Program-made: the position numbers and the translations under genes | Shown: positions 14,050 to 29,411 of the stretch, in pieces | How positions within the stretch are numbered: position 1 is the first letter of the stretch | How the letters are laid out: each line of letters starts with the position of its first letter | Source: Escherichia coli | GTDB taxonomy: Bacteria; Pseudomonadota; Gammaproteobacteria; Enterobacterales; Enterobacteriaceae | DNA length: 64,000 nt | Direction: 5' to 3' (one strand) | Assembly: GCF_024223415.1 (NCBI RefSeq) | Contig: NZ_CP100500.1 | The notes under the pieces: generated by a model | What the model saw: the letters and a program-made list of their open reading frames with translations, nothing else | Told to the model about the DNA's origin: nothing | Databases searched by the model: none

Positions 14050-14121
14050 TTTTATCACCGATATTAGTTAATATATTGATTTAATTAAAAATATACACAA
14101 ACAAAAGTGCCAAAAATCGCA

Positions 14122-14147
14122 AATTAACTACACCATTAACTACACCG
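14122..14147. repeat. Inner 26-bp direct repeat aattaactacaccattaactacaccg, left copy (two tandem 13-mers); alternative att core
   Basis: Exact 26/26 match to 29252-29277; followed on both sides by similar phased repeat arrays. Confidence 0.8.
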
Positions 14148-14163
14148 TTCGGCGCACTGTATG

Positions 14164-14189
14164 AAACAACGTGGAACAAATAGGCACAA
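14164..14189 (+). promoter_or_regulatory. 10-bp-phased NNACAA direct repeats (AAACAA, GAACAA, GCACAA); putative recombinase/RDF or regulator binding array
   Basis: Motifs start at 14164, 14174, 14184; same family as arrays at 21838, 27909 and 29284. Confidence 0.4.
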
Positions 14190-14366
14190 GAAATATAAAG
14201 GCGGGTAATTTTAAGGGGGCGTTGCTGTCGATATGGGGATCCACATAACGGGGCTACCTGGCTTTTTTTCCGGTTAAATGTCAATCAGGCTGGTGGGCTT
14301 TACCTGTTCGGTAGGTGTTATGATTATCGTAATACCTTTCCCCCAATGGGGTAAAAGCATCAACCG

Positions 14367-14911
14367 TAACGAAAGTCGTTATGGTTGCCACCGATACTCC
14401 AAATTTGGGTATCACGAGTAAGCCCCAAAATCTGGGTGTTACTCTTACTACCCAAACTACGGGTAGTTTCCGTAGTTTCATGGTCGAGTTGCAGATCTGC
14501 AACTCCCCCATCAACCACAGGCGAATTTCCGCCTTCGGTCATTCCTTAATCATCTGCGTAATCATAATGATTATTCAGCCAGCTCAATTTTGAGCTTTGC
14601 TTTAAGTTCAGCGAGTTACCGCGCCGACTTCCTCAAATTGAGGTTTCCGAAAATATCAGTGGGTTAGCGATTAAGCAGATGGATAATTAACCTGCGAAAA
14701 TTTCGCAGGTTACATCAGCGACGTAATTCTCGCTGTTCCTGCCCGGAGGTGTCGACGAATTTCGTCGGAACCTAAGCCTGCCGGGAAGTCCGTACGTTAA
14801 ACGTACGGAGTTAATTCGACATCACACACTACGTTGTCAATTTGCAAAGGAGGGGCGGAAATCACCATACCTGCCACCCTGTCATACAGAAAGGGATTAC
14901 GATAATCGTAA
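14367..14911. repeat. Palindrome-dense noncoding block (at least eight perfect or near-perfect inverted repeats of 13-21 bp)
   Basis: Palindromes at 14367-14381, 14454-14478, 14486-14505, 14581-14596, 14631-14643, 14691-14709, 14752-14766, 14789-14809, 14897-14911; no convincing ORF. Confidence 0.6.
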
Positions 14912-14987
14912 CAGGATACAACGCCGCCTGTAATCGTAACCAATTGATTTTTATGATGACGCAAATCTGCGTTATCAGTCCTCAAAG

Positions 14988-15278
14988 TTACCGCCGCAAC
15001 CGTTCCGGCTTCTTCCACTGATAAGTGTTTTTCGCGCTCTCCTGATACATCGCCACGCGTCGACGGTATGCCAGCAACTCTAGTACTCTGATTCGTATGT
15101 CGCGCATATCCACGCCGTTAAGCTCAATACCGTCACGGCGCATCACCTCCGCCACAACACGCACATAATTTTCGGCGGTCACGCTGTCCGGCTGCGTGGC
15201 CTGTTCGTCATGCTGCTGGCTGATTCCGGTAACGCGGCGGATTAATCCCAGTAGTTCGGCTTCGCTCATTCTCGTCAT
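14988..15278 (-). CDS. Hypothetical protein (96 aa) downstream of terL
   Basis: ORF start overlaps the terL stop (translational coupling geometry); no recognisable motif. Confidence 0.4.
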   Translation of the reverse strand: MTRMSEAELLGLIRRVTGISQQHDEQATQPDSVTAENYVRVVAEVMRRDGIELNGVDMRDIRIRVLELLAYRRRVAMYQESAKNTYQWKKPERLRR

Positions 15279-16936
15279 ACCCCATCAAACGCCGCAAGCC
15301 GCTCTTTGTGGCTGTCGCTCATATCGAATGCAAATTCCTCATGCTCTGCCTGGAATGTGCCAAACGCCATCAGCGCCGCAACGCTCGGGTCTATCTTGTT
15401 GGATGATTTTTTCTTGTTCGGCTTGATATTGGCGTTCGCGTCACTCTGCATCACAACATTACTCATTGACCAGGCCAGCACCGGATCACCACGATGCACA
15501 ATCACCTTCCGGTTAACAAAAACTTCGAACGATTTCGCCGCCGGACTGAAACGAAGGTATGTTTGCGGGAACGGCTCCACCTCAAATCCTGCGCCCTGTA
15601 GCTGCGTCATCAGGTGCGTGGCGTTCCATGTATCGAAGCCCACCAGCCGGATATTAAAATTTTCCGCGTCCTTCATGATGTCATCCCTGATACGGTCGTA
15701 ATCAATACAGTCGCCTGGCGTTGTGCGTATCCAGCCCGATTTTGCCCACTGGCGATAGATGGCGCGGTTTTTATTGGCGGGATTCTGTAGCTGCTGCTCC
15801 GGCAGATAATGACGGGAAACCAGCATGATGGTTTTACCAACCGGAAAGGCATAACACACGCTTGAAATATCATTTGTTGATGATAAATCCAGCCCCGCAT
15901 AGCACTCCTGCCCGTGTAAATCTTCCTCCGTGAACGTTCCGGCACACTCAGCCCATGCACCGTTACCCATCCACGGCGTAGCCCCCTGACACCAGATATT
16001 AAAGCGCTTTGTCATCATCTCCACCCACTGCGACGGAATACCCCGCGCTTTCTGGATGGTTGAGGCAAGTTTTTCACGATCGACGGAAACATCGATATTG
16101 GGATTCGCCTTTATCCACATCGCCGGATCGTCAACCTCGCTTTCATCATCCAGCTCGTAAATCATCACGAACATGGATTCATTAACCTCTTCACCATCCA
16201 GTATCTGACAGCAATAATCATAGTGCTGCTTACAGGCAGAAATAACGTTGCTTCCCGATGTGGTAATGGCGAATAACAGCCCGTCAGGACGCGCACCCAT
16301 CCCAAGTTCAAGCGCGGAATATACGCCGTTATCGGGGTGTAAATGGTATTCATCCACAATGGCAAGACTCGGGTTTGTCCCCTCAATGGTCGCCGCCTTT
16401 GCCGCCAGTGGCTTTAACAGGCTGTTGGTTTTCGGGTGTATCACCTTGTGCGCCTGAATATTTACCCGCTTTCGTAACGGTCGGGATAAAAGGCACATCT
16501 GACGCGCATCATCAAACACGATCCGCGCCTGATCACGACTCACGGCGGCGGTGTAAATATCCTGCTGCCCGTTTTCCATAACCAGAAACCAGTTAGCCAG
16601 GATAGCGGCGACCGTGGATTTGGCATTTTTTCGCGGTACTTCAATGAATGCGCTGGTGTATTTGCGCCGTCCGGTGGACTTAACCTTAAAGCCCAGGATG
16701 CACGCAAAGGCGAACTGCTGCCACGGCTCCAGTTCAATGGGGCTACCGCGCATTGCACCTTTTACGTGCGGGCACACCCTGGAAAAGGCAATAAACCGCT
16801 CCACGACCTCCGGATCGAACGTGTAAAGGGGGTTTTCAAGGTCAGAAAAATACCGTTTAACAGCCTGTTTCAGTCGTTTACAGGCCGTAATTTTGCCGTT
16901 TTTTACGCCTTCTGCGTACTCATGCCAGGCGGTCAA
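15275..16936 (-). CDS. terL: Terminase large subunit
   Basis: 553 aa; N-terminal ATPase region with P-loop-like PRKNAKST, C-terminal nuclease-like region; follows terS. Confidence 0.85.
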   Translation of the reverse strand: MTAWHEYAEGVKNGKITACKRLKQAVKRYFSDLENPLYTFDPEVVERFIAFSRVCPHVKGAMRGSPIELEPWQQFAFACILGFKVKSTGRRKYTSAFIEVPRKNAKSTVAAILANWFLVMENGQQDIYTAAVSRDQARIVFDDARQMCLLSRPLRKRVNIQAHKVIHPKTNSLLKPLAAKAATIEGTNPSLAIVDEYHLHPDNGVYSALELGMGARPDGLLFAITTSGSNVISACKQHYDYCCQILDGEEVNESMFVMIYELDDESEVDDPAMWIKANPNIDVSVDREKLASTIQKARGIPSQWVEMMTKRFNIWCQGATPWMGNGAWAECAGTFTEEDLHGQECYAGLDLSSTNDISSVCYAFPVGKTIMLVSRHYLPEQQLQNPANKNRAIYRQWAKSGWIRTTPGDCIDYDRIRDDIMKDAENFNIRLVGFDTWNATHLMTQLQGAGFEVEPFPQTYLRFSPAAKSFEVFVNRKVIVHRGDPVLAWSMSNVVMQSDANANIKPNKKKSSNKIDPSVAALMAFGTFQAEHEEFAFDMSDSHKERLAAFDGV

Positions 16937-17276
16937 GCTCGTCCTCTTCCTCTGTTTCCGGTGGATTTCTGCGTCGGCTTACCGGGTCAAAACCCAGCAA
17001 AGAAGCCATTTTGATCATTATTCTTTCTGCGTCAGCCTTTGCGCTCAGGGCGGGGTTTCTGCTCTCGCTGCCCTGACTGTTAACAATGCTGAACCCGCGC
17101 GTCGCAAGGTCTTCGACGGCTTTGCGGTATAGGGAGTAGTTAACGCAATACAGCTCAAGATTGCTCCAGTCGGCGGGGGTAAGGTCTTCCCGCCCGGAAA
17201 GCTGGCGCGATTTTTCCTTCCATTGCCTGACGGCAATTTCATCCAGGTAAGCGGGGGCTTTTGGTGGTCTTGCCAT
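16920..17276 (-). CDS. terS: Terminase small subunit (P27-family-like)
   Basis: Starts MARPPKAPAYLDEIAVRQWKE...; short basic N-terminus typical of P27-type TerS; overlaps the terL start. Confidence 0.6.
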   Translation of the reverse strand: MARPPKAPAYLDEIAVRQWKEKSRQLSGREDLTPADWSNLELYCVNYSLYRKAVEDLATRGFSIVNSQGSESRNPALSAKADAERIMIKMASLLGFDPVSRRRNPPETEEEDELDRLA

Positions 17277-17321
17277 GTTCTTTTTTCGCCCAATTATTTT
17301 CAAAAAAATTCCCGTGCACAA

Positions 17322-17565
17322 AAATTTGAGCAGGCGGTCGGTTCTGGGCAGGGTCGGGTTCGTCCTGAAAACTCCCCCCCACCCCGTCCGGCTGCCTCAT
17401 CAGCGATTGCGAAAACATTCCATGACCTCGCGGTCACGGTCGGTTAATCGCTTCGCTGTGGTGCGTTTTGTGCGCCCTGTCCTGTTGGCTTTGTGCTCTG
17501 TCTCCTGTGTCTTCCATGTGTCACGCTGCCTTATCAGTCCACGTATCAGCCTGGTTTGCTCCTGT
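17322..17565. other. Candidate cos/packaging site in the HNH-terS intergenic gap
   Basis: 244-bp noncoding gap with G-rich and C-rich tracts (ggcggtcggttctgggcagggtcggg, actcccccccacccc) at the position where HK97-like cos sites lie. Confidence 0.3.
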
Positions 17566-18006
17566 TCAGTCATCATCGCCATACATCCAGTCGTTACGGT
17601 GTGCCGCCCGTTCTTCCTGCTCGCGATACATGCCCGCTTTACGGTTTGCTTTCGTGGCTGGATCTTCCCGTGTGGTCTTACGGTTGTGGCACGTCTGGCA
17701 CAATGCCTGGTGATTCCACTCAGGCCAGAAGAGAACATCATTACCGCCATCGATGGGGATAATGTGATCCACCACCACGGCGGGCGTGTATATTCCTTTT
17801 TCCAGGCAATGCGCACATAACGGGTTTTTACTCAGGTACATAGCGCGGTATTTCTCCCACTGCCTCGTATACCCTCGCTCCCTGCTGCTGCCTCTCCGGC
17901 TGTCCTGCTGCTGGCGTGCGCTGCGTCTGTGCTCCTCACACTTCCCGGACTTCACGCGCCTGTTGCAGCCTGGTTGTGTGCATCGTCTCAATGGTTGCCA
18001 CGGCAT
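17566..18006 (-). CDS. HNH endonuclease (packaging-associated)
   Basis: 146 aa with Cys-His motif (CAHCLEKG...DHIIPIDGGND...ALCQTCHNRKT); sits next to terS as in HK97-like cos phages. Confidence 0.75.
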   Translation of the reverse strand: MPWQPLRRCTQPGCNRRVKSGKCEEHRRSARQQQDSRRGSSRERGYTRQWEKYRAMYLSKNPLCAHCLEKGIYTPAVVVDHIIPIDGGNDVLFWPEWNHQALCQTCHNRKTTREDPATKANRKAGMYREQEERAAHRNDWMYGDDD

Positions 18007-18302
18007 CAGTACACCCCCACATCACGATAAACCGACCAGAGCGCGGAAATCGTCAGGGGAATTTCTTTTGTATCGGTATCGCCAAGCGTTGTCCGGTACT
18101 CGTACAGTTGCGAGATGTACATCAGGCAACCAATTTTTATTGCAGGGGTAAATTCCAGGCCGTCATCAAAACGCCTGCCAATATGCTTCTGGCATACCTC
18201 CAGCGCCGCGCTTATGTATGCCTGAATCAGTGTGTCTTCTGTGTTACCATCTATGCGGCAGTGAAGTTTGGCCTCTTCCAGGGTTATTTTTTCTGCTGTC
18301 AT
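18006..18302 (-). CDS. Head-tail connector protein (gp6-like)
   Basis: 98 aa, MTAEKITLEEAKLHCRIDGNTEDTLIQAYISAALE... typical of phage gp6-like connectors. Confidence 0.55.
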   Translation of the reverse strand: MTAEKITLEEAKLHCRIDGNTEDTLIQAYISAALEVCQKHIGRRFDDGLEFTPAIKIGCLMYISQLYEYRTTLGDTDTKEIPLTISALWSVYRDVGVY

Positions 18303-18637
18303 TTTTCTGTACCCACCTTTGCCAGAATTTCCAGCCGGGTTCTTTTCGCATCAGGTAAGGGGATCCCGATGATATTAAGCGTGCTCCCGGCAAAAGCGCC
18401 GGTAAGCACTTTCAGGCGACTGGCGGCGGATATGTCGCCACGATAGCGAACCCATACCCGAATCGTTGCAGGTGCGGTTTCTGCGCCTGCGGTCAGTAAT
18501 TCCCGTCCGCTGATCCCCTTGACCTCTGCCCAGATGGTTTCCCCTTCCGTCCATATCTGCTGGATCGCACCTGACGGCAGGCGCTGTGTGGTAAATGTCA
18601 TAATCGTCACCCGGTCCCGCATCTTTCCGGCTATCAT
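18299..18637 (-). CDS. Head closure / head-tail adaptor protein
   Basis: 112 aa; size and position (after portal, before HNH) fit the head-tail joining family. Confidence 0.5.
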   Translation of the reverse strand: MIAGKMRDRVTIMTFTTQRLPSGAIQQIWTEGETIWAEVKGISGRELLTAGAETAPATIRVWVRYRGDISAASRLKVLTGAFAGSTLNIIGIPLPDAKRTRLEILAKVGTEK

Positions 18638-19851
18638 TCGTCACCGCCCTTACTGTTCTTGCTGATTGTCACTTCCTGCTTCCATGCCTGGCTGAACTCG
18701 TCGCCACCTTCACGCGGCGGCATTCCCTCACGCTCACGGGCTTCGTTCGGATTGATGATCCCGTTCTTAATCCCTTTCTCATACGTGGCGTAACGTTCGG
18801 TAGGGGTGGCGCGTAATAAATCGGCTGAATCAAACTCAACCAGATAACGGGTACCAGGTACGGGAGAAGCCACCAGCAAAGCAGCCTTGATTTGCTGTTC
18901 GAAGTTCGCCAGCCACGGGCGCATTGTCATGGTCAGAAACGCGCGGCTTGCCTCACTGAAATTGCTGTAGGTGCTGTTGCTGTATTCCTGCAAAAAAATC
19001 GGCGAGACGTTGAACATTCGGGCGATGTCTTCAATGGTAAAGCGACGGGAGGCCAGCCATTCAGCATCCTGATTACTCATGCCCAGCTGCTGATAGCTCA
19101 TACCCCCTTCAAGGATGGGCGTTTTTCCGGCGTTTCTGGCCCCTTTGTAGCGTTCCAGTGCGGCTAATGCCTGTTTGCCCTTCACGCCGTCCAGCCATTC
19201 GCCTGACGTGATAACCCCTGCCGCCATCATGCCATCACGCATCACGCTCGCGCCGTGGCGTTGTTGGGCCAGCCCAAGCCCCAGCGATTCGCGGCAGATG
19301 GTTACAGGTGAGCGCCCCATAAAGCCGTCATCCGTGGAGTAACGAAGGTGGAGAACCTCCCACGGTAAATAGTTGCGGGTGTTTCCGGTGTAGGCGTCAG
19401 TGATGCAGTAGCGCCAGTTATGCTCACCTGTCTGCTCCACGTTCACCGACTGCGGCGGGTAAGGATGTAAAGCCACCGGAAAACCATCACGCCCCCACTG
19501 AATAACCGCATAAGCATTACCGTTTAACAGGCAGTGGCGGATCATCATTCGCTTAAACTGGTAGGGGGTTTGCCATGCGTTCGGGCGCTCGTTGAGGATG
19601 TGATCGACCGGATGAGAATCAAGCCACTCGCGGGCCTCCTTCCCCTTCTCATTGCGTACCAGGTACAGGTAACACGGCATGGTAGCCACCGCCTCAGAGA
19701 TGACCGTCACGGCGTTCATGACGGCGGGCAGTGATTCCGCTGTCCCCGATGATACGTACTCACCCGCCCCCGTGTTCGATGTGCCCGCCAGCGCCATAAA
19801 TTCATCAAGCGTCATGCTGCGCTGCTCTTTTTTTCTTCTGAAAAGCCACAT
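18634..19851 (-). CDS. Portal protein (HK97 family-like)
   Basis: 405 aa; position between protease and connectors; composition typical of HK97-type portal. Confidence 0.8.
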   Translation of the reverse strand: MWLFRRKKEQRSMTLDEFMALAGTSNTGAGEYVSSGTAESLPAVMNAVTVISEAVATMPCYLYLVRNEKGKEAREWLDSHPVDHILNERPNAWQTPYQFKRMMIRHCLLNGNAYAVIQWGRDGFPVALHPYPPQSVNVEQTGEHNWRYCITDAYTGNTRNYLPWEVLHLRYSTDDGFMGRSPVTICRESLGLGLAQQRHGASVMRDGMMAAGVITSGEWLDGVKGKQALAALERYKGARNAGKTPILEGGMSYQQLGMSNQDAEWLASRRFTIEDIARMFNVSPIFLQEYSNSTYSNFSEASRAFLTMTMRPWLANFEQQIKAALLVASPVPGTRYLVEFDSADLLRATPTERYATYEKGIKNGIINPNEAREREGMPPREGGDEFSQAWKQEVTISKNSKGGDE

Positions 19852-19852
19852 A

Positions 19853-20425
19853 TCACACCCCCGCTAAATCCACCCACCAGCGGCGATTATCCGCACGCGG
19901 CATTTTTTCGGGGTGCTGCTCATACAGGGAACGGCGGGCCAGCTCCACGCCGGAATCGGGGTAAGCCGGTACCGATGTAACGGTAATTTCGTACAGTTCC
20001 GCCACCAGCACGGTACGAACGCATGGATCTGTTGTGGTATCCCATACATCCTTACGGGAGCGAAAGCCAAAGCTCATGCCGGATATATCACCGCGTTTAA
20101 CCAGTTCGATAACGTCGCGCCCTGTACTGGTATCCGGTGGGGTCAGTTCAAAGCGTAACCCTGTTTCGTCCTCTTCCAGTTTCAGCGTGCCGGAACGGGT
20201 GCGCCCCAGTAACATGCTGTGGTCATGCTCATACAGGCCGCGAACGTCATTACCCGCCGCAAGCCATTCAGTAAACGCCCCCCGCTGGAATTTTTCGTAA
20301 AACTCACCCCATAACAGTTCTGAAAGCTTATCCCAGCGAACAACGTAGCCCGTCAGCGTACCGGCTCCGCTCGTGGTGATTTCCGATGACCGGATTTCCA
20401 TACTCTTCATAATTTTTTCACCCAT
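19853..20425 (-). CDS. Prohead maturation protease (HK97 gp4-like)
   Basis: 190 aa immediately downstream of the capsid gene. Confidence 0.75.
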   Translation of the reverse strand: MGEKIMKSMEIRSSEITTSGAGTLTGYVVRWDKLSELLWGEFYEKFQRGAFTEWLAAGNDVRGLYEHDHSMLLGRTRSGTLKLEEDETGLRFELTPPDTSTGRDVIELVKRGDISGMSFGFRSRKDVWDTTTDPCVRTVLVAELYEITVTSVPAYPDSGVELARRSLYEQHPEKMPRADNRRWWVDLAGV

Positions 20426-20464
20426 AAAACACTAAAGGGGCTTTTAAGCCCCTTCTGTATGCTG

Positions 20465-21622
20465 TTAATCGTCGTCCTGTGGCAGTTCCAGAATCTTGAT
20501 CGCGTTCGAATCCACCACGCCACCGCCTAAATATTTCTGCGTGAAAATTTTGATGAAGCCCGGCTCTGTGATGTTGTCCGGTCTGGTGCGAACACCTGTT
20601 TCGTGATCAACAATGTAGTAACCGCGTTTGAAGTCACCCAGGGCAATAACGTTATCAGGCATAAACTCCAGATATTCGACCGGAAGGCCCAGCAACGTAT
20701 CAGGATCACCCGCCTGTAAACGGTCGCGCCAGATGTAATCACCGTTCGCGTTCTTCACCTTCTGAAGTTTTGCCGCCGTTGTGGAGTTAACCACCCATAC
20801 CGCGTTCTTGCGGTATTTTTTACGCAATGCAAATTTCAGGTCGATCAGCGGGTCCGCAGATGTCCACGCCAGACCGTGAGCGGGCTTGATAACCTGCAAC
20901 GTTCCGAAGTCGCGTTCTTTGTCGCTCTTCTCTGCACGGGGGACGGATAAAAAGCCTTTTGCTTTTTTGTCACCGTCGCCCACAACCAGATCGCTTTCTT
21001 CGGTTTCCGTGAAGGTGTCGCCAATCTCGGCCGTCAGCCATGAAAGGATGTCCACATCGGAAAAATCCACGATTTCCTGTGTGGTGCGCGGGTACGCATA
21101 GACCGGATACAGCTTAATGCTCACCTCGTTAATCTGCGGGGTGCTGGTCTGTTCGCGTGCCTTACCCTCTTCACCGTGGTTAACGGTCGCACCGCCAGCG
21201 GAAACAAGCTGCTTAAACTCGTTGCTGCTGATTTTCTTCACGGTACAGATGCGGCGCATGGTGGATTCATCCGCCAGCATTCGCATGATTTCGGTGTTCA
21301 GTTCGGGGATAACGGTATAACCACCATCAGCGGGAACGCCTGTACTTAATGCGCGGGTTTCACCTGTCAGAATGTAGTTGCGTAGTTCTGCGGGGTCAGT
21401 GGTCTGACTGCTTTTACCTGGCTTGCTGCGCTCTTCGTCTGCAATGGCTTCAAGGCGGGAAATGTCTTTATCGAGGGATTCAGCTTTAGCGCGTAATTCA
21501 TCAAATTTTGCGCCCTCAGCATCGTTAAGACTGCGGTTTTCTTTTTCCGCGTTCTCCAGCATGTCGCGCATCTGATTTTTAATGGCGGTTTTCTGCTGGC
21601 GTAATTCGATTATTCTCGGCAT
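20465..21622 (-). CDS. Major capsid protein, HK97 fold, with N-terminal coiled-coil scaffold (delta) domain
   Basis: ATG at 21622 gives MPRIIELRQQKTAIKNQMRDMLENAE... (delta domain) then capsid body; the longer ORF to 21667 would read through a terminator hairpin. Confidence 0.85.
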   Translation of the reverse strand: MPRIIELRQQKTAIKNQMRDMLENAEKENRSLNDAEGAKFDELRAKAESLDKDISRLEAIADEERSKPGKSSQTTDPAELRNYILTGETRALSTGVPADGGYTVIPELNTEIMRMLADESTMRRICTVKKISSNEFKQLVSAGGATVNHGEEGKAREQTSTPQINEVSIKLYPVYAYPRTTQEIVDFSDVDILSWLTAEIGDTFTETEESDLVVGDGDKKAKGFLSVPRAEKSDKERDFGTLQVIKPAHGLAWTSADPLIDLKFALRKKYRKNAVWVVNSTTAAKLQKVKNANGDYIWRDRLQAGDPDTLLGLPVEYLEFMPDNVIALGDFKRGYYIVDHETGVRTRPDNITEPGFIKIFTQKYLGGGVVDSNAIKILELPQDDD

Positions 21623-21660
21623 AAAAAAAAGTCCTGGGGTTAAGTAAGGAACTCCAGGAC
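21623..21660 (-). terminator. Intrinsic terminator on the minus strand directly abutting the capsid start codon
   Basis: Minus strand reads gtcctgg-(16 nt)-ccaggac followed by TTTTTTTT, then ATG of the capsid gene. Confidence 0.45.
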
Positions 21661-21837: not shown

Positions 21838-21896
21838 GAACAACCTGGAACAACCACGAACAAATAATTTACAAAACCTGAAAAAATAAATAAACT
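21838..21896 (+). promoter_or_regulatory. Promoter of the 157-aa gene with phased upstream repeats: GAACAA x3 at 10-bp spacing, then -35 TTTACA, 17-bp spacer, -10 TAAACT
   Basis: GAACAA at 21838, 21848, 21858; TTTACA 21868-21873; TAAACT 21891-21896; AGGAGG SD at 21924 and ATG at 21938. Confidence 0.45.
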
Positions 21897-21937
21897 GTTC
21901 CGTACATTTTCTGCTCGTTAATCAGGAGGAACGAACT

Positions 21938-22411
21938 ATGTCAGAAAATGAACTGAAAAAAGCAATGTTCATTCAGCAACGATTGCAGATTCTCCACCTT
22001 GGTAAACACTATGATGAGTTCAGTGATTCTTACGTGTATGCCTGGGAGGCAGATGTTTATCCTTTCTTGCAGGATGGCGACGGAAGTATTCCTGCTCGCC
22101 CACATGAAATTTACGAAGAGTTTTTCGGCACATCTAAAAACAAAGCCAAAAAGATATACGATCGTCTGTGCAAAGCCTGGCACGACCAGGAGGCACTCAC
22201 ATTCTATAAACTAGAAAGTGAATATGGTGTAACAAGTAGCAGCATGCACAGATGGACACGAAGTGATTTACTTCACATCTGCCGCTATCTGTATCTTGAG
22301 GGGTGTTTCGATAAAGATTTCTGGGAAACATTACTGGAAAACGGAAAATGCCCAAGCGAAGCACTTTACCTTAGCGATGAATTTAATCGCGATACAGAGA
22401 TCGACTTCTAA
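21938..22411 (+). CDS. Hypothetical protein (157 aa), stand-alone opposite-strand cargo gene
   Basis: Strong SD and promoter, own bidirectional terminator; only plus-strand gene inside the structural/regulatory part of the island; no recognisable domain. Confidence 0.65.
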   Translation: MSENELKKAMFIQQRLQILHLGKHYDEFSDSYVYAWEADVYPFLQDGDGSIPARPHEIYEEFFGTSKNKAKKIYDRLCKAWHDQEALTFYKLESEYGVTSSSMHRWTRSDLLHICRYLYLEGCFDKDFWETLLENGKCPSEALYLSDEFNRDTEIDF

Positions 22412-22448
22412 AAAAATGGCCTGGAAAATACCAGGCCATTATTATTCT
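22411..22448. terminator. Bidirectional intrinsic terminator between convergent genes
   Basis: atggcctgg-aaaata-ccaggccat flanked by an A-run on one side and T-rich sequence on the other. Confidence 0.55.
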
Positions 22449-22695
22449 ACCGTTTCACGGGATCACGCATTCTGCGCCTTATTTTCCACAGATATTCGAT
22501 CATCGCTTCCACCTGCTCACGGTTGGTTGCGAAAATTTCCCCGGTCAGTGAGCTACGCAGAAAATCATGATGATCCACAAAAAATAACGCATCGGAAGAA
22601 AGCAGCCGGAGATATTTTTTTGCTGTCGTGCTTTCCAGATCATCAAAATCATGAAGCTTTTTATGTTGCTGGACTTCTTCAAATGTCACTGGCAT
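22447..22695 (-). CDS. Hypothetical protein (about 82 aa)
   Basis: Internal ATG (MPVTFEEVQQHKKLHDF...) downstream of the PerC-like gene. Confidence 0.45.
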   Translation of the reverse strand: MPVTFEEVQQHKKLHDFDDLESTTAKKYLRLLSSDALFFVDHHDFLRSSLTGEIFATNREQVEAMIEYLWKIRRRMRDPVKR

Positions 22696-22740
22696 GTTTC
22701 CTCCTGCTACCACGATACCAGAAACAGTTAACAACCGTTA

Positions 22741-23022
22741 TCAATTATCCCCTTTTTTAGGGTAGTTCCTGAACATCTCACCGCCAGGCTTCTGTAAGCC
22801 CATCCCGGTATGTGTGCGGTTTATGGCCTCTTTCAGTATTCCGAAATTATCCGGTATGACTGGTGGGCGTGCTGCCTTACGGATACATTCCGCGCGACGC
22901 TTTGCCACTTGTTCGCGCTCCTTGTCAGTGCTCACCAGCCACATAACATCAGCCCATCGCGCGGCCGCCCTCCGGTAAAATCCTTTCGCCTCCAGTTCCT
23001 CCGCTATCCGGTCATGTACCAT
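22741..23022 (-). CDS. PerC-family-like transcriptional regulator (tentative)
   Basis: About 93 aa from internal ATG: MVHDRIAEELEAKGFYRRAAARWADVMW...; the EAxGxxRRAAxxW motif resembles PerC-type activators. Confidence 0.4.
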   Translation of the reverse strand: MVHDRIAEELEAKGFYRRAAARWADVMWLVSTDKEREQVAKRRAECIRKAARPPVIPDNFGILKEAINRTHTGMGLQKPGGEMFRNYPKKGDN

Positions 23023-23032: not shown

Positions 23033-23443
23033 TCAGAACGGAATATCATCACCGTAAGGGTCATCGCCTCCCGCTGGTGGCTGATTACCCTGTGTGCCTG
23101 TGGTTTTGCGTCTGTTCCCACCAGGACGTGCCGCACGCGCACTGATTACGCTGTCTGCGATAACCTGCCAGCCCTGCCGCGTTTCCCCGTTCTGTCCGGT
23201 CCACTGGCTGACCTGCATCGTGCCGGATACGCTGGCAACGTCGCCTTTTTGATGTTTAGCCAGAAAGTCGGCCTGTTTGCCAAATGCGATGACCGATAAC
23301 CATAACGTCGCCTGTCCGTCCTGTGCCTGGCCGCATGGTAAAGATACCGCCATACGCGCCAGCGTCATCGGTGTACCCTTACTGGTCTGTTTTACCTGCG
23401 GGTCGTCCACCAGCCGCCCGTAAGCTGCAATTTGTGCTGTCAT
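23033..23443 (-). CDS. ssb: Single-stranded DNA-binding protein
   Basis: 136 aa with OB-fold-like core and acidic C-terminal tail ending DDIPF. Confidence 0.85.
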   Translation of the reverse strand: MTAQIAAYGRLVDDPQVKQTSKGTPMTLARMAVSLPCGQAQDGQATLWLSVIAFGKQADFLAKHQKGDVASVSGTMQVSQWTGQNGETRQGWQVIADSVISARAARPGGNRRKTTGTQGNQPPAGGDDPYGDDIPF

Positions 23444-23452
23444 ATTGCCACC

Positions 23453-23758
23453 TCAGTGAAGCGATCCGGCGTTGTTCTTTTTCATCTCTTCCATCATTTT
23501 TTCAGTGAGCATTACGCACTGAAAACCCATGTTTTTGATGTCTACGGGTTTCATGCCTTTGTCAGTGGATATCACAGGCAGAATATCCTGATACACATCG
23601 CCGCCAGGGTAACTAAGCACACAAAGCGCCCATGATGCCACGGGTGAGGATCCTTGGTCTGTTTCAACCCACCAGCCTGGTGTAGCTGCGCTTATTTGCA
23701 GAATCGTGATCCGTCCGTTGTGCTTGTAAAATTTTTCACCACATTTTGGTTCGCTCAT
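23453..23758 (-). CDS. Hypothetical protein (101 aa)
   Basis: ORF in operon context between ssb and the ori region. Confidence 0.4.
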   Translation of the reverse strand: MSEPKCGEKFYKHNGRITILQISAATPGWWVETDQGSSPVASWALCVLSYPGGDVYQDILPVISTDKGMKPVDIKNMGFQCVMLTEKMMEEMKKNNAGSLH

Positions 23759-24006
23759 GCTTCCACCTCTCCGGTTTTAACGTTGATGGTTGTCACCTGT
23801 TCCGCTCCGGCAATCTCCCGTTCTGTCAGCGTGGCAAAATTTGCCGCTACCGTTGTCATGAATGCGCTTATCAGTTCGGGATGTGCTTTCGCGTATCCTT
23901 CTCCCGCGTGGCGGTCTATCGTTCTGATTGCCACCTTTAAGGCGTGCTCTGTCATGTCTAACGCTTTATATTTTGGCGCTGTCTTATCTCTGGTTTTTCT
24001 GTTCAT
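23755..24006 (-). CDS. Hypothetical protein (start uncertain)
   Basis: ORF 23755-24036 trimmed to an internal ATG because its 5' end runs into the iteron array. Confidence 0.3.
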   Translation of the reverse strand: MNRKTRDKTAPKYKALDMTEHALKVAIRTIDRHAGEGYAKAHPELISAFMTTVAANFATLTEREIAGAEQVTTINVKTGEVEA

Positions 24007-24225
24007 TCCCCACCACTCCCCACTTTTGCTCCCCACTTTTTAAATTCCCCACTTGCTCCCCACCTCGTTTTTTGAGTGAATCTAATGCTTTGTTTTTCAT
24101 TGCGTTTTTTGCTCCCCACTTTTTTGGATGTATACAGGTGGGAAAGTGGGGAATTATGTTTCAATTTTGTTAAATTCCCCACTCTCCCCACTTTTACTAC
24201 CCACTTTTTACAGTGGGTAAACATC
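24005..24225. repeat. Iteron array (at least 8 copies of tccccactttt-like units in both orientations around an AT-rich core); putative replication origin
   Basis: Repeats ctccccactttt, gctccccacttttt, attccccact and inverted gtgggaaagtgggg, immediately 3' of the primase/helicase gene. Confidence 0.6.
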
Positions 24226-25614
24226 ATCCCCATCGACACAAATCACGCCGTCTTTTTCCAGCTTGTACAGCCAGCGCCGGAAGTGCTTCATCTCATACCC
24301 CAGCTTTTTCATATCGTCGCGGAGAAGGGCGATAGTGCATGGCTCTTTGTGTGCCGTCCGCGTTCTGATGCACTGCCATAGCGCGGCGTGATTCTCCGAT
24401 TTGTTGCCTGCTTCCTCGATGCGCTCCAGTTCAGCAGGGGCGCGGGGAACGTCAATCACCACCATAGACACAATCTCTTCGCCATCTGTATCGGTGAACA
24501 CCTCCACGCTTTTAAGGTCGTATGCACTCTCTTTTGGCTCCTCTGCGTCCTTCATCTTCGTACACGCCGCCACCAGTGCTGTAACGTCTGAATTTTCCCG
24601 GCTGATTCGGTACTCTGCATCAAGCGCGGCACGGAATGCGCTGGAACCACGCGCCCCCTTTGTTTCATCCTTGCCGGAATGGTGAACCACCAGCACCGTG
24701 GCCCCTGTGGCCTGCTTTATCGCGTCACACCCCTGGATAAATGCGCCCATATCACGGGAATCATTTTCATCATTCCCACCAAAGCAACGGGCCAGTGTGT
24801 CGATCACAATCAGCCGCACATTTTCGCCCGTTCTGCTCTTAACAAGTCCGGCAGTCCTGATAACCTGCTCCACATAGTCAGGCGATGCAGGGAAAACAGG
24901 CGCGTTAATGATGCACAAATCTGTAACCACCTTGTCGTGGGTTATCTCCCACGCCTTAACGCGGCGTTTTACGCCCATGCTGCCTTCACCAGCGATATAG
25001 ATAACCGCCCCCTTACTTACCCTGCGGCCTCCCCATGCCATACCTGTGGCAACATGGCACGACCAGGAAATGGCGAGGAACGATTTATAAGAACCGCTGG
25101 CCCCGTAGGTGCTGCATAATGACTCAGCCGGAATAAGCCCCTTAATTACGTAGCTTTGCTGCGCGTCGAATCCCTCAGAACCCCATGAGATGGGAAGCGT
25201 GATTTTTCGCTTTCCGCCATTCATGACCAGGCTTTCCCCTCTCTCCCATGTTTCCCGTAGTCGTGGTAGCTGGTCGCTCCAGTCCTCCAGCAGTTCGAAA
25301 TTTTCAGAAAGTAGCCGCGCCTCCTGGACTCCGGCGATCGCCAGTTTTGTGGCAATGGTCAGCATCTGCATATCGTCCAGGTTTCCGGCGCGTATGACCT
25401 TTGCCCTGTATCGTCCTTCATCAACAATCTGTAAGTTGTCCAGTTCGCTTAACTGATAACGGCCCAGGTAAACCGGAGGGATGGGATCGCCTGCTTTTTT
25501 GGCCTGTGCAATCATGTAATGTTCTGCAAAGGAGTGAGCATTATCACCCGCAAAAATAACCGCCTCAGTGTGTTTATCTTTCGGTAACAGTTTTACGTTC
25601 GGTGCAAGTTTCAT
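24208..25614 (-). CDS. Replication protein: primase-like N-terminus plus RecA/DnaB-like AAA ATPase (pri-rep)
   Basis: 468 aa; Walker A-like IYIAGEGSMGVKRR and Walker B-like LIVIDTLARCFG, C-terminal winged-helix-like tail. Confidence 0.75.
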   Translation of the reverse strand: MKLAPNVKLLPKDKHTEAVIFAGDNAHSFAEHYMIAQAKKAGDPIPPVYLGRYQLSELDNLQIVDEGRYRAKVIRAGNLDDMQMLTIATKLAIAGVQEARLLSENFELLEDWSDQLPRLRETWERGESLVMNGGKRKITLPISWGSEGFDAQQSYVIKGLIPAESLCSTYGASGSYKSFLAISWSCHVATGMAWGGRRVSKGAVIYIAGEGSMGVKRRVKAWEITHDKVVTDLCIINAPVFPASPDYVEQVIRTAGLVKSRTGENVRLIVIDTLARCFGGNDENDSRDMGAFIQGCDAIKQATGATVLVVHHSGKDETKGARGSSAFRAALDAEYRISRENSDVTALVAACTKMKDAEEPKESAYDLKSVEVFTDTDGEEIVSMVVIDVPRAPAELERIEEAGNKSENHAALWQCIRTRTAHKEPCTIALLRDDMKKLGYEMKHFRRWLYKLEKDGVICVDGDDVYPL

Positions 25615-25898
25615 TTCTTACCCCCTGCGACCAGCATTTCACGGATTTTGCGGATATAACTTGCAGCACGTTTCTGATTAACGGCTTTACGATGGCCCAC
25701 CAGCGTGAAATCACGCCGGAACTGATAAACAGGCATAACGCAGTCATATTCGTAGCCTTCACGGCGGTAAGTTACGCGACGTTCCTCCACGCTTTTAATT
25801 GTTACCGTGCCGCCGTAGTTATCTTTGAAAATATCGCCGGGGCGGATTTCAGGCCGAGCGGGGCCGCTGGCAGTAAAGCCAGAATATTTAAGTTTCAT
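25611..25898 (-). CDS. Hypothetical protein (95 aa)
   Basis: Stop overlaps the pri-rep start; basic protein. Confidence 0.4.
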   Translation of the reverse strand: MKLKYSGFTASGPARPEIRPGDIFKDNYGGTVTIKSVEERRVTYRREGYEYDCVMPVYQFRRDFTLVGHRKAVNQKRAASYIRKIREMLVAGGKK

Positions 25899-25903
25899 TA
25901 TTT

Positions 25904-26137
25904 TTATTCTCCGGTGTGCTGTTCTTTATATCTGTCGTGCAATAGGTCTATTTCCTGCAACTCTGTTATTACAGGTTCAAGGAGAGTTATCAGAGATTTA
26001 ATAATCCGCGCATTCTTTACATCACGCTCATTATCGCCAAATGTATCTGGATACATTTGCAATATTTCGTACATACCTTCAGCGTAAGCAATGGCACTAA
26101 ATGCGCGGTCTATTGTTTCGAGGTAAATATCACGCAT
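25904..26137 (-). CDS. Hypothetical protein (77 aa)
   Basis: Compactly spaced ORF in the same operon. Confidence 0.4.
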   Translation of the reverse strand: MRDIYLETIDRAFSAIAYAEGMYEILQMYPDTFGDNERDVKNARIIKSLITLLEPVITELQEIDLLHDRYKEQHTGE

Positions 26138-26138
26138 A

Positions 26139-26387
26139 TTAATCCCCGTCCGTCGTTTTTCTTAAAATAACCTCTGTCACGAAATCAGCATAATCGGCGG
26201 CGATATTCAGTACATCAAGCCCCGTTGATTTATATTCTCTCGTGGAAAGTAAGAAAAAAGCCGCTCTAATAAGCTCTGGCATTGACGAAAGCGCATCAGC
26301 CGCATCATCAGGAACGCCGGAAAATTCCTGTTTCAGGGAATTAAAACGATCATCACGCATAACCCCCCCCATTTTCACAATCAGCAA
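26139..26387 (-). CDS. Hypothetical protein (82 aa)
   Basis: Compactly spaced ORF in the same operon. Confidence 0.35.
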   Translation of the reverse strand: MLIVKMGGVMRDDRFNSLKQEFSGVPDDAADALSSMPELIRAAFFLLSTREYKSTGLDVLNIAADYADFVTEVILRKTTDGD

Positions 26388-26634
26388 TCAGGATGGCTTT
26401 GGCCTCATTCAGTGCCATATCAGCGGTAAGCTGTGCGTAGGCCAGCAAATGCGGGATTATTGCCCCTGTATATTCCGTCTCTCTGGTAATGTGTTTTTCT
26501 GCGGTTGCTGCCGTGCATGAAATATCAATCAGCGCGTGCATCAGCGTTTTGATGGCTTCGGCGGCTGCGTCCGGACGGGTGTTATTGCACATGGCACACC
26601 TCCTGACGGATACGGGCGGCGAATACAGCGACAC
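26353..26634 (-). CDS. Hypothetical protein (start uncertain)
   Basis: ORF overlapping its neighbours; probable start at an internal ATG. Confidence 0.3.
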   Translation of the reverse strand: MSLYSPPVSVRRCAMCNNTRPDAAAEAIKTLMHALIDISCTAATAEKHITRETEYTGAIIPHLLAYAQLTADMALNEAKAILIADCENGGGYA

Positions 26635-26780
26635 AACCGGACGGGCAACGGTTACGCGCTTCGCGTTCCGTCCAGGCGGTCACGTGGATAATTTGAGATT
26701 CTCCGGCACTCAGTGCCAGAAAACGCCACACAAAGGCGGTTTGTGTGTGCGCTAGTCGTGGGGTATGCTGTGTTCCAGCC
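26582..26780 (-). CDS. Hypothetical small protein (about 66 aa), first gene of the leftward early operon
   Basis: C-terminal part of spurious 267-aa ORF, from ATG near 26780: MAGTQHTPRLAHTQTAFVWRF...; divergent from the RHH gene. Confidence 0.35.
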
Positions 26781-26867
26781 ATAATCGTTACTCCTGTTAA
26801 CGGTTTGGTTAGACGCCCTGCATGTGTTACAGCACTGCGGGGCGTTGTCTTTTTAACGGCTTTCGTG

Positions 26868-26917
26868 ATAGGGTGTACACCTATCAAGCAAAAAAATAAC
26901 GCTATAGGTGTACACAT
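26868..26917. promoter_or_regulatory. Two operator-like palindromes centred on GTGTACAC in the divergent regulatory region
   Basis: atagggtgtacacctat (26868-26884) and tataggtgtacacat (26903-26917); the second overlaps the RHH start codon. Confidence 0.45.
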
Positions 26918-27110
26918 GTCAACAGTTATTAAGCGAGATAAAAAACCAAAGGGAACAGGAAAAGCCCCCCCATTCCATATGCGAATAGCTCCAGAACTGA
27001 AAGAGCAGTTTGATAATGAGGCCAGCAATGATGGGGTAAGCCTAGCCAACTGGCTTAAAGAGTTGGGACGCAGTGAACTGAAGCGGCGCGGTATAGAACC
27101 CAAAGGTTGA
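26916..27110 (+). CDS. Ribbon-helix-helix (Arc/MetJ-like) DNA-binding protein; candidate island repressor
   Basis: About 64 aa from internal ATG: MSTVIKRDKKPKGTGKAPPFHMRIAPELKEQFDNEASNDGVSLANWLKELG; only regulator on the plus strand, divergent from the early operon. Confidence 0.5.
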   Translation: MSTVIKRDKKPKGTGKAPPFHMRIAPELKEQFDNEASNDGVSLANWLKELGRSELKRRGIEPKG

Positions 27111-27143
27111 TAGCCCACCAGCAAGCCAGGACACTGATCACAT

Positions 27144-27171
27144 TGGCCACCGTGACAGGTGGCCTTTTCTT
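27144..27171 (+). terminator. Intrinsic terminator after the RHH gene
   Basis: ggccacc-gtgaca-ggtggcc followed by ttttcttt. Confidence 0.5.
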
Positions 27172-27437
27172 TGCCCGTTATCCGGCAATTGTGGCGCTTC
27201 GCCACACGGTTGATATAATCCCACTGCTCATATTCATTTTTTGCGCAGCAGGTAAATTGTTCAGAAAGGCGGCTCCTTATCGGGGCCGCTTTTTTTATGC
27301 CTGAAAAACCGCGATTTTGTTGTTTTTCAGTTTCACAAGGCCGAACGAAGCCCCGCCCCTGTTCCGGCGTATATCCAGTCTTCATGGTTAAATCTCTGTA
27401 TTAGTGGATGGGTGGCGGCTGTGTGCCGCCAGTCTTT

Positions 27438-27626
27438 TTAGTGAACTGCCTCGCAGCTTTCCTTCCATGCCAGAACTTCGGATAAAGACCAGCCAACGGA
27501 ACGACCGCCCAGCTTACGCCGTGATGGGAATTGTCCGGCCTTTTCCAGGCGGTAGCGGCATGAGCGGCTAAGCCCTGTTAGCTTTTCGCATTCTTTTTCA
27601 CGTATAAAACGATCAGTGCTTAACAC
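27438..27626 (-). CDS. alpA: AlpA-family phage transcriptional regulator / excisionase-like
   Basis: 62 aa, LTGLSRSCRYRLEKAGQFPSRRKLGGRSVGWSLSEVLAW matches the AlpA/Xis HTH pattern; adjacent to int. Confidence 0.75.
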   Translation of the reverse strand: MLSTDRFIREKECEKLTGLSRSCRYRLEKAGQFPSRRKLGGRSVGWSLSEVLAWKESCEAVH

Positions 27627-27908
27627 TATTGCCCCCTTTCGTTTCTTAAAGAGTTATTTCGTGTTCTATTGCGTTGGTATGTGTCTGATTGTGTCAGGGT
27701 GATTCAGAGTTGGCAAATGTTGATGGCGGGTATTTTACAGAAACGGGGTGATTTTAATAAAAAACATTTTAATTCAGTATTATGCAAAGGCATAAAATCT
27801 CGTTTCATGCCTTTTTTCTCACTATTTAAAGCGTTATTCGCTAATGTATAAAAAACCAGTTGAGCATTAAAAATCAGCAACTTATAAATCTGTATATTTT
27901 TTGGCCTC

Positions 27909-27954
27909 TTGTTCGTGGTTGTTTCACGTTGTTGCGTATTGTTGCACGTTGTAT
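27909..27954 (-). promoter_or_regulatory. Five 10-bp-phased direct repeats (TTGTT on plus strand = AACAA on minus) between int and alpA
   Basis: TTGT motifs start at 27909, 27919, 27929, 27939, 27949. Confidence 0.5.
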
Positions 27955-28000
27955 CTGTGCACTTATCCAGTATGCGCATACTGAAAAAACACGAAAAAAA

Positions 28001-29248
28001 TTATTTTCTTCTGGCTACTGGTAGCGTGGTTACGTTTTCATGTGCTCCCGCCAGTATCTCCAACCGCTCCACCCACATATCCAGCGCATTGCGTTTCGCA
28101 TCCAGATAACGGGAATGATTATAAACTCGCTGCATTCCTGGCATCTGGTGGCCTGTAAGCTGCTCCACGACATGCGGATCAACGCCTAAATCGTTCAGCA
28201 TGGTTGTAAAGGTGCGCCGGATGTCATGCAGTGACCAGTGAGGGTGTTTAAGCCTCCTGTGCACTAATCTGCCGTACTGCGACACGCTGGTTTCCTGTTT
28301 CACTTCCCCCAGCAATAAGTCCGTGTGCCTGTTCTGCTCCACCAGCTGCGTGACGAACGGCAGTATCGCTTCCGGTATGGGCCGGAATATGGCTACCTTC
28401 GTTTTGCTGTGCTCCTTCGGAACGGTCCAGAGCATTTCGGTAAAATCCCACTCGCCGATCTCCGATAACCTCAGTTCTACTGTCCTGCATCCGAAGACAA
28501 TCAGGAGGCGGATTAGTGCGACGTAGTAAGGGGAAAATATTTTTTTGTCCAGTGCCTGCAATAATTCGCCAAGTTCTTTGTTACTTAAGACACGCTGACT
28601 TATATCCGGTTTTTTCCCAACGTCAGCCACACTCATATCATCAAGAACGTTGCTGATTGCATAGCGCCGCTTCCGGCAGAACTTAAGCGCCTGTTTGCAT
28701 GTCTGTAGCAGGAACCCGGCGGAAACAGGGGCTTGCTTTGCCACCCGATCAAAACAGGCCAGCCAGTGCCGTAGCTCGCATTTATCCAGCGGCATAGGGC
28801 CAATGTGCTGTATTACGTGATTATTTAGCCGCTTTTTCAGTGGGTCATAATCCACACGGTTTTCCTTTGCGTACGACTCAAGCCAGTAGGTGAGCGCATC
28901 GCCAACCGTTACAGGCTTTAACGCTTCCTGTACGGTGTAATTCATCTCATGACGTGGATTTTTCCCCTCAGCCAGCCATGCGCGACACTGGGCGGCTTTT
29001 TCCCTGGCTGATTTCAGGCTCAGATCAGGATAATTTCCCAGCTTAATGCGTTCCGGTGGTGCGCCCCTTCCCGTTCCGGCCCTGTAAGTGAAATACCAGG
29101 TTAAAAGGCCGCTGGTTGAATGCCTGACGGTCAGGTTTCCACCGTCATTAAGAAAGGCTGTTTTTTGGGCGGGTGTGCCGTTGATTTTCCTTAGCTGTGT
29201 ATCACTCAGTTTGTTAAGTGCTCTGCGCATAATTTTGATTCCGGTCAT
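28001..29248 (-). CDS. int: Tyrosine-type site-specific integrase (P4-like)
   Basis: About 415 aa; N-terminal arm-binding-like region, catalytic HDIRRTF...HQMPGMQRVYNHSRY; start codon (GTG 29251 or ATG 29248/29230) abuts the 26-bp repeat. Confidence 0.9.
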   Translation of the reverse strand: MTGIKIMRRALNKLSDTQLRKINGTPAQKTAFLNDGGNLTVRHSTSGLLTWYFTYRAGTGRGAPPERIKLGNYPDLSLKSAREKAAQCRAWLAEGKNPRHEMNYTVQEALKPVTVGDALTYWLESYAKENRVDYDPLKKRLNNHVIQHIGPMPLDKCELRHWLACFDRVAKQAPVSAGFLLQTCKQALKFCRKRRYAISNVLDDMSVADVGKKPDISQRVLSNKELGELLQALDKKIFSPYYVALIRLLIVFGCRTVELRLSEIGEWDFTEMLWTVPKEHSKTKVAIFRPIPEAILPFVTQLVEQNRHTDLLLGEVKQETSVSQYGRLVHRRLKHPHWSLHDIRRTFTTMLNDLGVDPHVVEQLTGHQMPGMQRVYNHSRYLDAKRNALDMWVERLEILAGAHENVTTLPVARRK

Positions 29249-29251
29249 CAC

Positions 29252-29277
29252 AATTAACTACACCATTAACTACACCG
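29252..29277. repeat. Inner 26-bp direct repeat, right copy
   Basis: Exact match to 14122-14147. Confidence 0.8.
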
Positions 29278-29283
29278 ATCGTT

Positions 29284-29319
29284 GCACAAAGGGCTACAAC
29301 GTGAAACAAGCTGGAACAA
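29284..29319 (+). promoter_or_regulatory. 10-bp-phased NNACAA repeats (GCACAA, CTACAA, AAACAA, GAACAA) upstream of int on the opposite strand
   Basis: Motifs start at 29284, 29294, 29304, 29314; homologous to the array at 14164-14189. Confidence 0.4.
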
Positions 29320-29399
29320 GAAAAATCACAAATTTGTTTATAATCAAAAACATAATGCACAATCTGAAACATTATGAAACGGCAAAAAACACTAATTGA

Positions 29400-29411
29400 T
29401 AAAATATGTCC
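29400..29411. repeat. Right copy of short direct repeat taaaatatgtcc; candidate attR core
   Basis: Matches the sequence at the phoQ stop codon (14039-14049). Confidence 0.5.

Follow-up and report, generated by a model that had tools for sequence, protein, structure and literature searches.

The stretch analysed here, a 64-kb window of the Escherichia coli contig NZ_CP100500.1 (assembly GCF_024223415.1), carries an insertion of 15,362 bp between phoQ and roxA (14050-29411) that has the gene content of a capsid-forming phage-inducible chromosomal island (cf-PICI). Both junctions were aligned to the empty site of the K-12 reference, where 75 bp lie between the two genes. Together with a direct repeat (D12), this alignment delimits a 15-bp att core, which reads TGAATAAATATGTCC at attL (14035-14049) and TGATAAAATATGTCC at attR (29397-29411); attB in K-12 is TGAATAAATATGCCC. 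The phoQ gene ends at 14041, and its stop codon (14039-14041) is overlapped by the attL core, while the start of roxA falls at 29479 if the K-12 gene length is applied. A sequence-only reading of the window had given these coordinates for the block, exact to the base, and had described it as an insertion relative to K-12, as the recovered empty site confirms. The same reading called the block low in GC, which is wrong. The element has 50.4% GC against 49.8% in its flanks, and these values rule out low GC as a sign of foreign origin. Low GC is confined to sub-regions, namely 14050-14987 (43.6%) and the orf157/orf95 slot at 21668-22740 (42.8%).

Genes were assigned by PHROG, NCBIfam and Pfam searches. 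From the roxA side, the minus strand carries int, alpA, an early operon of small open reading frames (ORFs), rep, two further small ORFs, the gene for the single-stranded DNA-binding protein (SSB), a PerC-family gene, orf95 and the head/packaging operon. Only two genes lie on the plus strand, as first read: orf157 (21938-22411) and a ribbon-helix-helix (RHH) gene (26916-27110). In E. coli O157:H7 EDL933 (NZ_CP008957.1), the roxA-phoQ interval is likewise occupied by an element of 15.4 kb, whose genes follow one another from int to orf96 as they do here. By its size and gene content, we identify this element as EcCIEDL933, the 15.4-kb prototype cf-PICI, which encodes int, alpA, rep, capsid, protease, portal, connectors, HNH, TerS and TerL and has no tail genes. 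The main text of the EcCIEDL933 paper does not name the integration site.

The tyrosine integrase (28001-29230, minus strand) is composed of the Pfam domains Arm-DNA-bind_3 and Phage_integrase, and the neighboring AlpA-family regulator/excisionase (27438-27626, minus strand) was identified by phrog_2790 (E = 1e-17). The early operon (25611-26782, minus strand) contains small ORFs with profile matches to DUF4222-like, phrog_2196, phrog_2512/24341, phrog_5146 and Icd-like families, the Icd-like ORF (26582-26782, minus strand) being the first from the roxA side, ahead of four conserved small ORFs and one of DUF4222 type. Divergent from this operon is the plus-strand RHH (Arc-like) regulator (phrog_228, E = 8e-6). 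The EDL933 and FORC_042 islands keep its frame, its stop position and a 3-nt in-frame indel, although the gene is missing from their annotations. Because the RHH frame is conserved in these two islands, the long minus-strand ORF that runs across it (267 aa, 26582-27385) is probably a spurious read-through, and the Icd-like ORF together with the opposite-strand RHH gene inside it fit better. In EDL933, PGAP calls a 744-bp hypothetical gene opposite the RHH gene (L005 22616-22801), the "gene downstream of alpA", and this call may be an annotation artefact. The PerC-family transcriptional activator (22741-23022, minus strand) matches Pfam PF06069 with E = 2.6e-37. PerC/Pch proteins regulate the virulence genes of the locus of enterocyte effacement in enteropathogenic and enterohaemorrhagic E. 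coli. These matches uphold four assignments that had been made from the letters of the window, that is, an integrase, an AlpA-type regulator, an RHH repressor-like gene divergent from a string of small ORFs and a PerC-like regulator.

Rep (24208-25614, minus strand; 468 aa, phrog_2850) is a RepA-family helicase whose AAA_25 domain spans residues 146-317 (Pfam, E = 5.8e-42). No primase domain was detected in Rep by the PHROG and Pfam searches. Of the primase/helicase that was first proposed, the helicase part is therefore retained and the primase part is not, and priming must be supplied by the host or by a domain that escaped detection. Directly after rep, within 187 bp (24006-24192, minus strand), lies an iteron origin made up of nine copies of RGTGGGGAR around an AT-rich spacer. 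This motif matches 11 times in the window against 1.26 expected, a count that no shuffle reached, and nine of the 11 matches are clustered at this position, in agreement with the iteron array originally noted after rep. The SSB gene (23033-23443, minus strand; TIGR00621 above cut-off, phrog_44) had also been recognized in advance. It is accompanied by two small conserved ORFs (23453-24036, minus strand) that match phrog_27268 and phrog_1231.

The head and packaging operon occupies the minus strand on the phoQ side of the element. The 385-aa major capsid protein (20465-21622; TIGR01554) has the HK97 fold and matches the solved EcCIEDL933 capsid (PDB 9GYI) with E = 2.7e-252. It is followed by a prohead protease of the HK97 family (S78; 19853-20425; TIGR01543, 179.4 bits against a cut-off of 59), a portal of the HK97 family (18634-19851; TIGR01537, 254.7 bits against a cut-off of 112), the head closure protein Hc1 (18299-18637; TIGR01563, phrog_25) and the head-tail adaptor Ad1, a gp6-like connector (18006-18302; TIGR01560, phrog_40). 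Hc1 and Ad1 are both divergent alleles. The packaging genes comprise an HNH endonuclease, a packaging accessory (17566-18006; phrog_144, E = 6e-43), a basic 60-aa ORF between HNH and terS (17400-17582; phrog_3173) whose homologue is PGAP-annotated in relatives, a P27-family TerS (16920-17276; TIGR01558 above cut-off, phrog_83) and TerL (15275-16936; phrog_9, E = 1e-181). The operon ends with orf96 (14988-15278; phrog_1561), which encodes a small conserved protein. Homologues of orf96 are found after terL in cf-PICIs and after DUF1441 or terS genes in classical PICIs.

Capsid, protease, portal, Hc1, Ad1 and TerS pass the curated NCBIfam cut-offs, several of them widely, which bears out the complete HK97-type head and packaging module seen by the sequence-only reading. 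That reading would have been abandoned if the capsid, portal and terminase ORFs had failed to match HK97-family profiles, and all of them matched. All head and packaging proteins also align full length to their EDL933 homologues, and the module is therefore intact, without truncations. A further ORF, orf59 (17239-17418), was rejected as spurious, and the better-supported gene that overlaps it was preferred. The capsid gene is separated from the protease gene by a terminator-like hairpin (20434-20455), which might determine how strongly the two are expressed relative to each other.

The packaging cos site is most likely a G-rich motif, GACGGGGTGGGGGGGAGTTTTCAGGAC, in the HNH-terS intergenic region (17362-17388, minus strand), which is conserved from the E. 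coli elements to those of Serratia and Edwardsiella. A 16.5-kb genome with cf-PICI-like features was obtained from an induced Klebsiella lysate, and its linear record, LR881103.1, ends exactly at ...TTTTCAGGAC, coinciding with this candidate motif. The same record contains a 2.3-kb gene directly after terL (2036-4333) that is annotated as a tape measure protein. The name is probably wrong, and the gene an accessory one in the variable slot that follows the packaging genes.

The element and EcCIEDL933 are alike in attB, the att core region, the 15.4-kb size class and the gene order. Protein identities are 98% for capsid and SSB, 97% for protease, 95% for portal, Int and AlpA, 93% for TerL, 87% for TerS, 78% for HNH, 68% for adaptor, 67% for PerC and 54% for closure. 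Rep differs, as it is an AAA_25 protein of 468 aa here and a DUF927 protein of 710 aa in EcCIEDL933 (46% over 127 aa). The genes orf157 and orf101 and two early small ORFs of the window element are not in EcCIEDL933, whose terminal non-coding region also differs and is without the structured core at 14388-14528. At the phoQ-roxA site, both the EDL933 and the FORC_042 island have an integrase of the type found in our element (95-97%), but they are only ~88% identical elsewhere and have other replicases.

Among 5,426 complete E. coli genomes, the closest whole-element relative is a cf-PICI of E. coli GF60 (NZ_CP172185.1), which matches 93% of the block at a nucleotide identity of 96.5%. Its adaptor/closure cassette, orf157, Rep and AlpA, like most of its proteins, are 99-100% identical to those of the window element. 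The GF60 element, however, is located in tqsA, has a different att core and an integrase that is 90% identical, and is without the RHH gene and the 14328-14994 segment. Close relatives are found at other att sites, e.g. tqsA and thiM. Distribution was counted over the same 5,426 genomes, none of which carries the exact element. The packaging backbone is present at a coverage of at least 80% in 416 genomes and the whole block, at the same coverage, in 18, while the closure/adaptor allele is found at a nucleotide identity of at least 95% in 16. For the closure protein, the nearest phage homologues are found in Escherichia phage Fraca and in temperate phages of Klebsiella (63-69%), and the EcCIEDL933 version is more distant (54%). 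He et al. showed that the adaptor and connector proteins decide which tails cf-PICI heads accept, and noted that some islands share otherwise identical packaging modules but differ in this cassette; the window element is an example. Since the closure/adaptor pair of the window element is a rare allele, its compatible tails probably differ from those of EcCIEDL933 (HK106).

These features were weighed together to classify the element. No block ORF of at least 50 aa, unassigned gaps included, matched a tail, baseplate, holin or endolysin family in the PHROG searches, in keeping with the original statement that tail and lysis genes are lacking. The absence of such matches and the presence of AlpA set the element apart from a temperate phage, and megablast against phages returned short stretches in only 4 of 50,697 records. 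The SatelliteFinder definition of a cfPICI has 11 core components and forbids tails and holins. Its sequence-testable components are all present, as judged from PHROG, NCBIfam and Pfam matches. The element combines an integrase and att repeats, AlpA near int, capsid and protease, portal, adaptor and closure proteins, HNH, TerS and TerL with its own replication module, consisting of the AAA_25 Rep and the nine-copy iteron origin, and its size of 15,362 bp fits a small capsid. Every sequence-testable feature of the cf-PICI reading is thus present, and the gene order that had been described as the one reported for capsid-forming PICIs is the order of the EDL933 element.

The head and packaging genes are phage-derived, and there is no helper within the window. 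Such a locus could be a cryptic prophage in decay, deprived of its tail and lysis genes and no longer mobile, but we regard this as improbable. All 25 assigned genes are full length against their homologues, and profile searches returned no fragments of tail, lysis or lambdoid early genes. The full-length alignment to the EDL933 homologues supports the earlier view that the modules are intact and contiguous, which argues against decay. Hundreds of genomes contain this compact layout, at several different att sites, the integrase-AlpA-Rep half is of satellite type and not of prophage type, and the EDL933 sibling is experimentally mobile. The block is also not embedded in a larger prophage, an arrangement that had been named at the outset as speaking against a satellite. 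It is bordered directly by core genes on both sides, has no other prophage DNA next to it, and lies in a window that is otherwise collinear with K-12.

It is more improbable still that the element is a satellite of the classical PICI or P4-like type, which travels in helper capsids and whose head genes only interfere with the helper. Int, AlpA, the Icd-like and DUF4222 ORFs, orf96 and the terminal non-coding segment are common to classical E. coli PICIs, which can also carry capsid-like genes. Classical PICIs are, however, defined as being without portal, adaptor and connector, and the element has portal, adaptor and closure genes; these and TerL are the components by which SatelliteFinder excludes a classical PICI. 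There is no Rpp/DUF1441 gene in the block. No block ORF gave a match named as the P4-specific sid, psu, delta or alpha primase, and what the element has in common with P4 is limited to the Int, AlpA and Icd-like classes. EcCIEDL933 makes its own small capsids, needs every packaging gene and borrows only helper tails. For its proteins that are 93-98% identical to those of the window, deletion abolishes transfer of the island and not of the helper. A domesticated head module that packages host DNA in the manner of a gene transfer agent (GTA) is very improbable, for although the next solved relatives of the capsid after 9GYI come from the GTA of Rhodobacter capsulatus (E = 1.5e-46), the element has its own integrase, att sites, origin and replication genes, variable sites and a patchy distribution, and a cos-type HNH/P27 terminase set in place of the headful GTA set.

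Several points weigh against assignment as a functional cf-PICI. It is from homology that induction, excision, replication, capsid formation and transfer are deduced, and there is no helper prophage within the window. Rep is of another family than the DUF927 Rep of EcCIEDL933 (46% over 127 aa) and has no recognisable primase domain, and the identity of the RHH gene is weakly supported (E = 8e-6). The cos call rests on conservation and on the ends of one linear record, which was possibly rotated by convention, and LR881103.1 is without ~70 nt of the HNH-terS intergenic region that is present in the window. With these points taken into account, we consider it very likely that the block is an intact cf-PICI and a mosaic sibling of EcCIEDL933, which its P4-type tyrosine integrase inserted into an attB overlapping the stop codon of phoQ. 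By analogy with its characterised relatives, the element would depend on a helper, excise and form particles.

Both att sides contain doubled motifs that are probably the arm-type sites of Int. A 12-bp motif, ATTAACTACACC, is doubled at 14122-14147 (plus strand), its nearest edge ~80 bp from the core centre, and a second doubled copy is positioned at 29252-29277 (plus strand), ~127 bp from the core centre; the doubled motifs can also be written ACTACACC. This geometry mirrors that of attP in helper-embedded PICIs (HE-PICIs), where a different doubled motif lies at 81 and 132 bp and was reported to be unique to HE-PICIs (PMC10111431). The sequence of the motif differs between the two.

A second set of repeats, AACAA phased at 10 bp, is found in both arms and at two internal positions. 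The arrays lie in the attL arm (14163-14192, plus strand), upstream of the capsid gene (21839-21863, plus strand; 217-241 bp before the capsid start), in the int-alpA gap, upstream of alpA (27905-27960, minus strand; 4-5 copies), and, by pattern count, in the attR arm (29296-29325, plus strand). AACAA-N5-AACAA matches eight times in the window against 0.30 expected, a number reached by no shuffle, and seven of the eight matches are inside the element, where they form four clusters. In EDL933 and in GF60, the elements carry arrays at the same four position classes, the attL-arm and int-alpA arrays among them. These account for all 6 matches in the 49-kb EDL933 locus and for all 7 matches of GF60. 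Classical PICIs at the thiM site carry the AACAA arm array, and a Serratia cf-PICI that encodes a longer (94-aa) AlpA-family protein has no AACAA array. P4 Vis has a dual role, and by analogy the arrays may be the operator set of a single island DNA-binding protein, AlpA being the most plausible. If AlpA binds all of the arrays, excision, self-activation and expression of the head operon would be coupled.

The accessory gene orf157 (21938-22411, plus strand) is divergent from the capsid operon and belongs to a small Enterobacterales family. It had no Pfam, PHROG, NCBIfam or PADLOC match. The gene is located divergently upstream of the capsid gene in all three cf-PICI loci that were inspected, and it is found at this conserved position in cf-PICIs of E. 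coli, Serratia and Edwardsiella. Its AlphaFold2 model is all-helical (pLDDT 90) and resembles uncharacterised proteins of 150 aa. In some of these fold relatives an RHH, AbrB or WYL domain is attached, and one bears the label SocA/Panacea antitoxin-like, so that, judging by the model, orf157 may be an antitoxin-like or anti-defence protein. PADLOC returned no defence-system match for ten proteins, comprising orf157, orf95, the small early and replication ORFs, orf96 and Rep. The minus-strand gene orf95 (22447-22734) matches phrog_1957. Between orf157 and the early operon lies a terminator-like bidirectional hairpin (22415-22440). Since the early operon ends at this hairpin, the head operon needs its own promoter within 21623-21937.

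The terminal non-coding region (14050-14987, 940 bp) is unusually structured, with folding z-scores of -8.0 and -6.5. The segment at 14380-14600, which reaches z = -8.0 on either strand, is common to classical PICIs and is present in 709 of the 5,426 E. coli genomes. All five inspected loci, which include classical PICIs as well as cf-PICIs, have it near the satellite end, with a homologue of orf96 upstream of it. The 14700-14990 segment, by comparison, was found in only two other genomes, in a classical PICI. One 20-mer of the structured segment, searched for exact matches, had none in the collection of species-representative genomes. In an alignment of five sequences the stems are mostly invariant, with some uncompensated changes, a pattern that fits an RNA structure no better than its absence. 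The region may be an RNA, a terminator cluster or a packaging site shared with classical PICIs. Relaxed-threshold Rfam matches in this region, to manA (21.6 bits against 55.2) and to a potassium-channel editing signal, were treated as chance. A known phage cos site was ruled out, as distant phage BLAST gave only a marginal 35-nt match to roi/ant (E = 9e-4).

A repeat unit, AGTTACCGCGCC(G/A)ACTTCC with a short hairpin behind it, is present in one or two copies at 14610-14630 and 14975-14987, and in three or four copies after orf96 in the EDL933 element (L005 34760-35500). The unit may faintly resemble lambda cosN, and this lambda-like resemblance (GTTACCGCGCCGACTT) was kept as a lead. In NZ_CP145668.1 (4153-12138, L012), a PICI lies inside the major capsid gene of a lambdoid prophage and is thus a helper-embedded PICI. 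It has the same end of orf96 and structured segment, beside a gene of an abortive-infection family.

Outside the block, the window is collinear with K-12 at ~98.5% identity, with two exceptions. There is no e14 at icd, where the window (1-5932) runs from the bluF-ymgA side straight into icd, and a ~1.3-kb ycfZ-ymfA segment of K-12 is missing at about 36137-36142. No tRNA genes were found in the 64-kb window, and Rfam at gathering thresholds gave no match over its whole length.

The cycle proposed for the element is drawn from homology to EcCIEDL933 and EcCICFT073, the Rep domain, the iterons and their position being the parts that are read from the sequence itself, as are the att-bounded integration, the arm-binding domain of Int, the separate head operon and the lack of tail and lysis genes. 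EcCIEDL933 requires alpA and is induced by phages HK106 and HK446, and in EcCICFT073 both AlpA self-activation and helper-dependent alpA expression have been shown. A helper phage would turn on alpA, and AlpA would activate itself and the island and, with Int, drive excision. Rep would then fire the iteron origin directly downstream of its gene, with the element's own SSB. Behind the terminator and the divergent orf157, the head and packaging operon would be expressed separately. Capsid protein, protease and portal are expected to build small T=4 heads sized for ~15.4 kb; the EcCIEDL933 capsid is T=4 with a diameter of 47.5 nm (PDB 9GYI). TerS, TerL and HNH would cut and package the island from its cos site, and the closure and adaptor proteins would complete the tail-less heads. 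Lysis by the helper would free these heads, which would become infectious after docking onto siphovirus tails.

The element is not new as a kind, since the cf-PICI family, its prototype EcCIEDL933 and this integration site have already been described. What is new is a mosaic member of an experimentally characterised family at the locus of the prototype. It joins the integrase of the O157 prototype and the body of a tqsA-type island to a different replicase and a rare docking cassette, which illustrates the modularity of these islands. With their own DNA-filled heads and any compatible tail, cf-PICIs spread genes between strains and even genera, and the phages able to move an island can be predicted from its tail-docking allele. 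If the cassette retargets heads, tails other than those of EcCIEDL933 would be used. The element is thus a natural chimera, convenient for tests of tail specificity and of Rep/ori specificity. It might also reveal unrecorded cf-PICI features, such as the AACAA operator set, tail retargeting or functions of orf157 and the structured region, although we hold this to be rather doubtful.

Compared with classical Gram-negative PICIs (EcCICFT073 type) and helper-embedded PICIs, the element is alike in Int, AlpA, the Icd-like and DUF4222 ORFs, SSB, PerC, orf96 with its downstream structured segment and a doubled arm motif at ~80/130 bp. Those islands, however, are without portal, adaptor, closure, HNH and TerL. 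Instead, they redirect the helper terminase by Rpp or TerS and use helper capsid proteins. The head module is shared with HK97-like siphoviruses (HK97, HK106), which have an HK97-fold capsid, a protease, a portal, a gp6-like adaptor, a P27-type TerS and cos packaging that depends on HNH. Unlike these phages, the element is without tail, lysis and lambdoid immunity genes and is ~15 kb in size against their ~40 kb, and the capsid of its prototype, EcCIEDL933, is T=4 where the HK97-like capsid is T=7.

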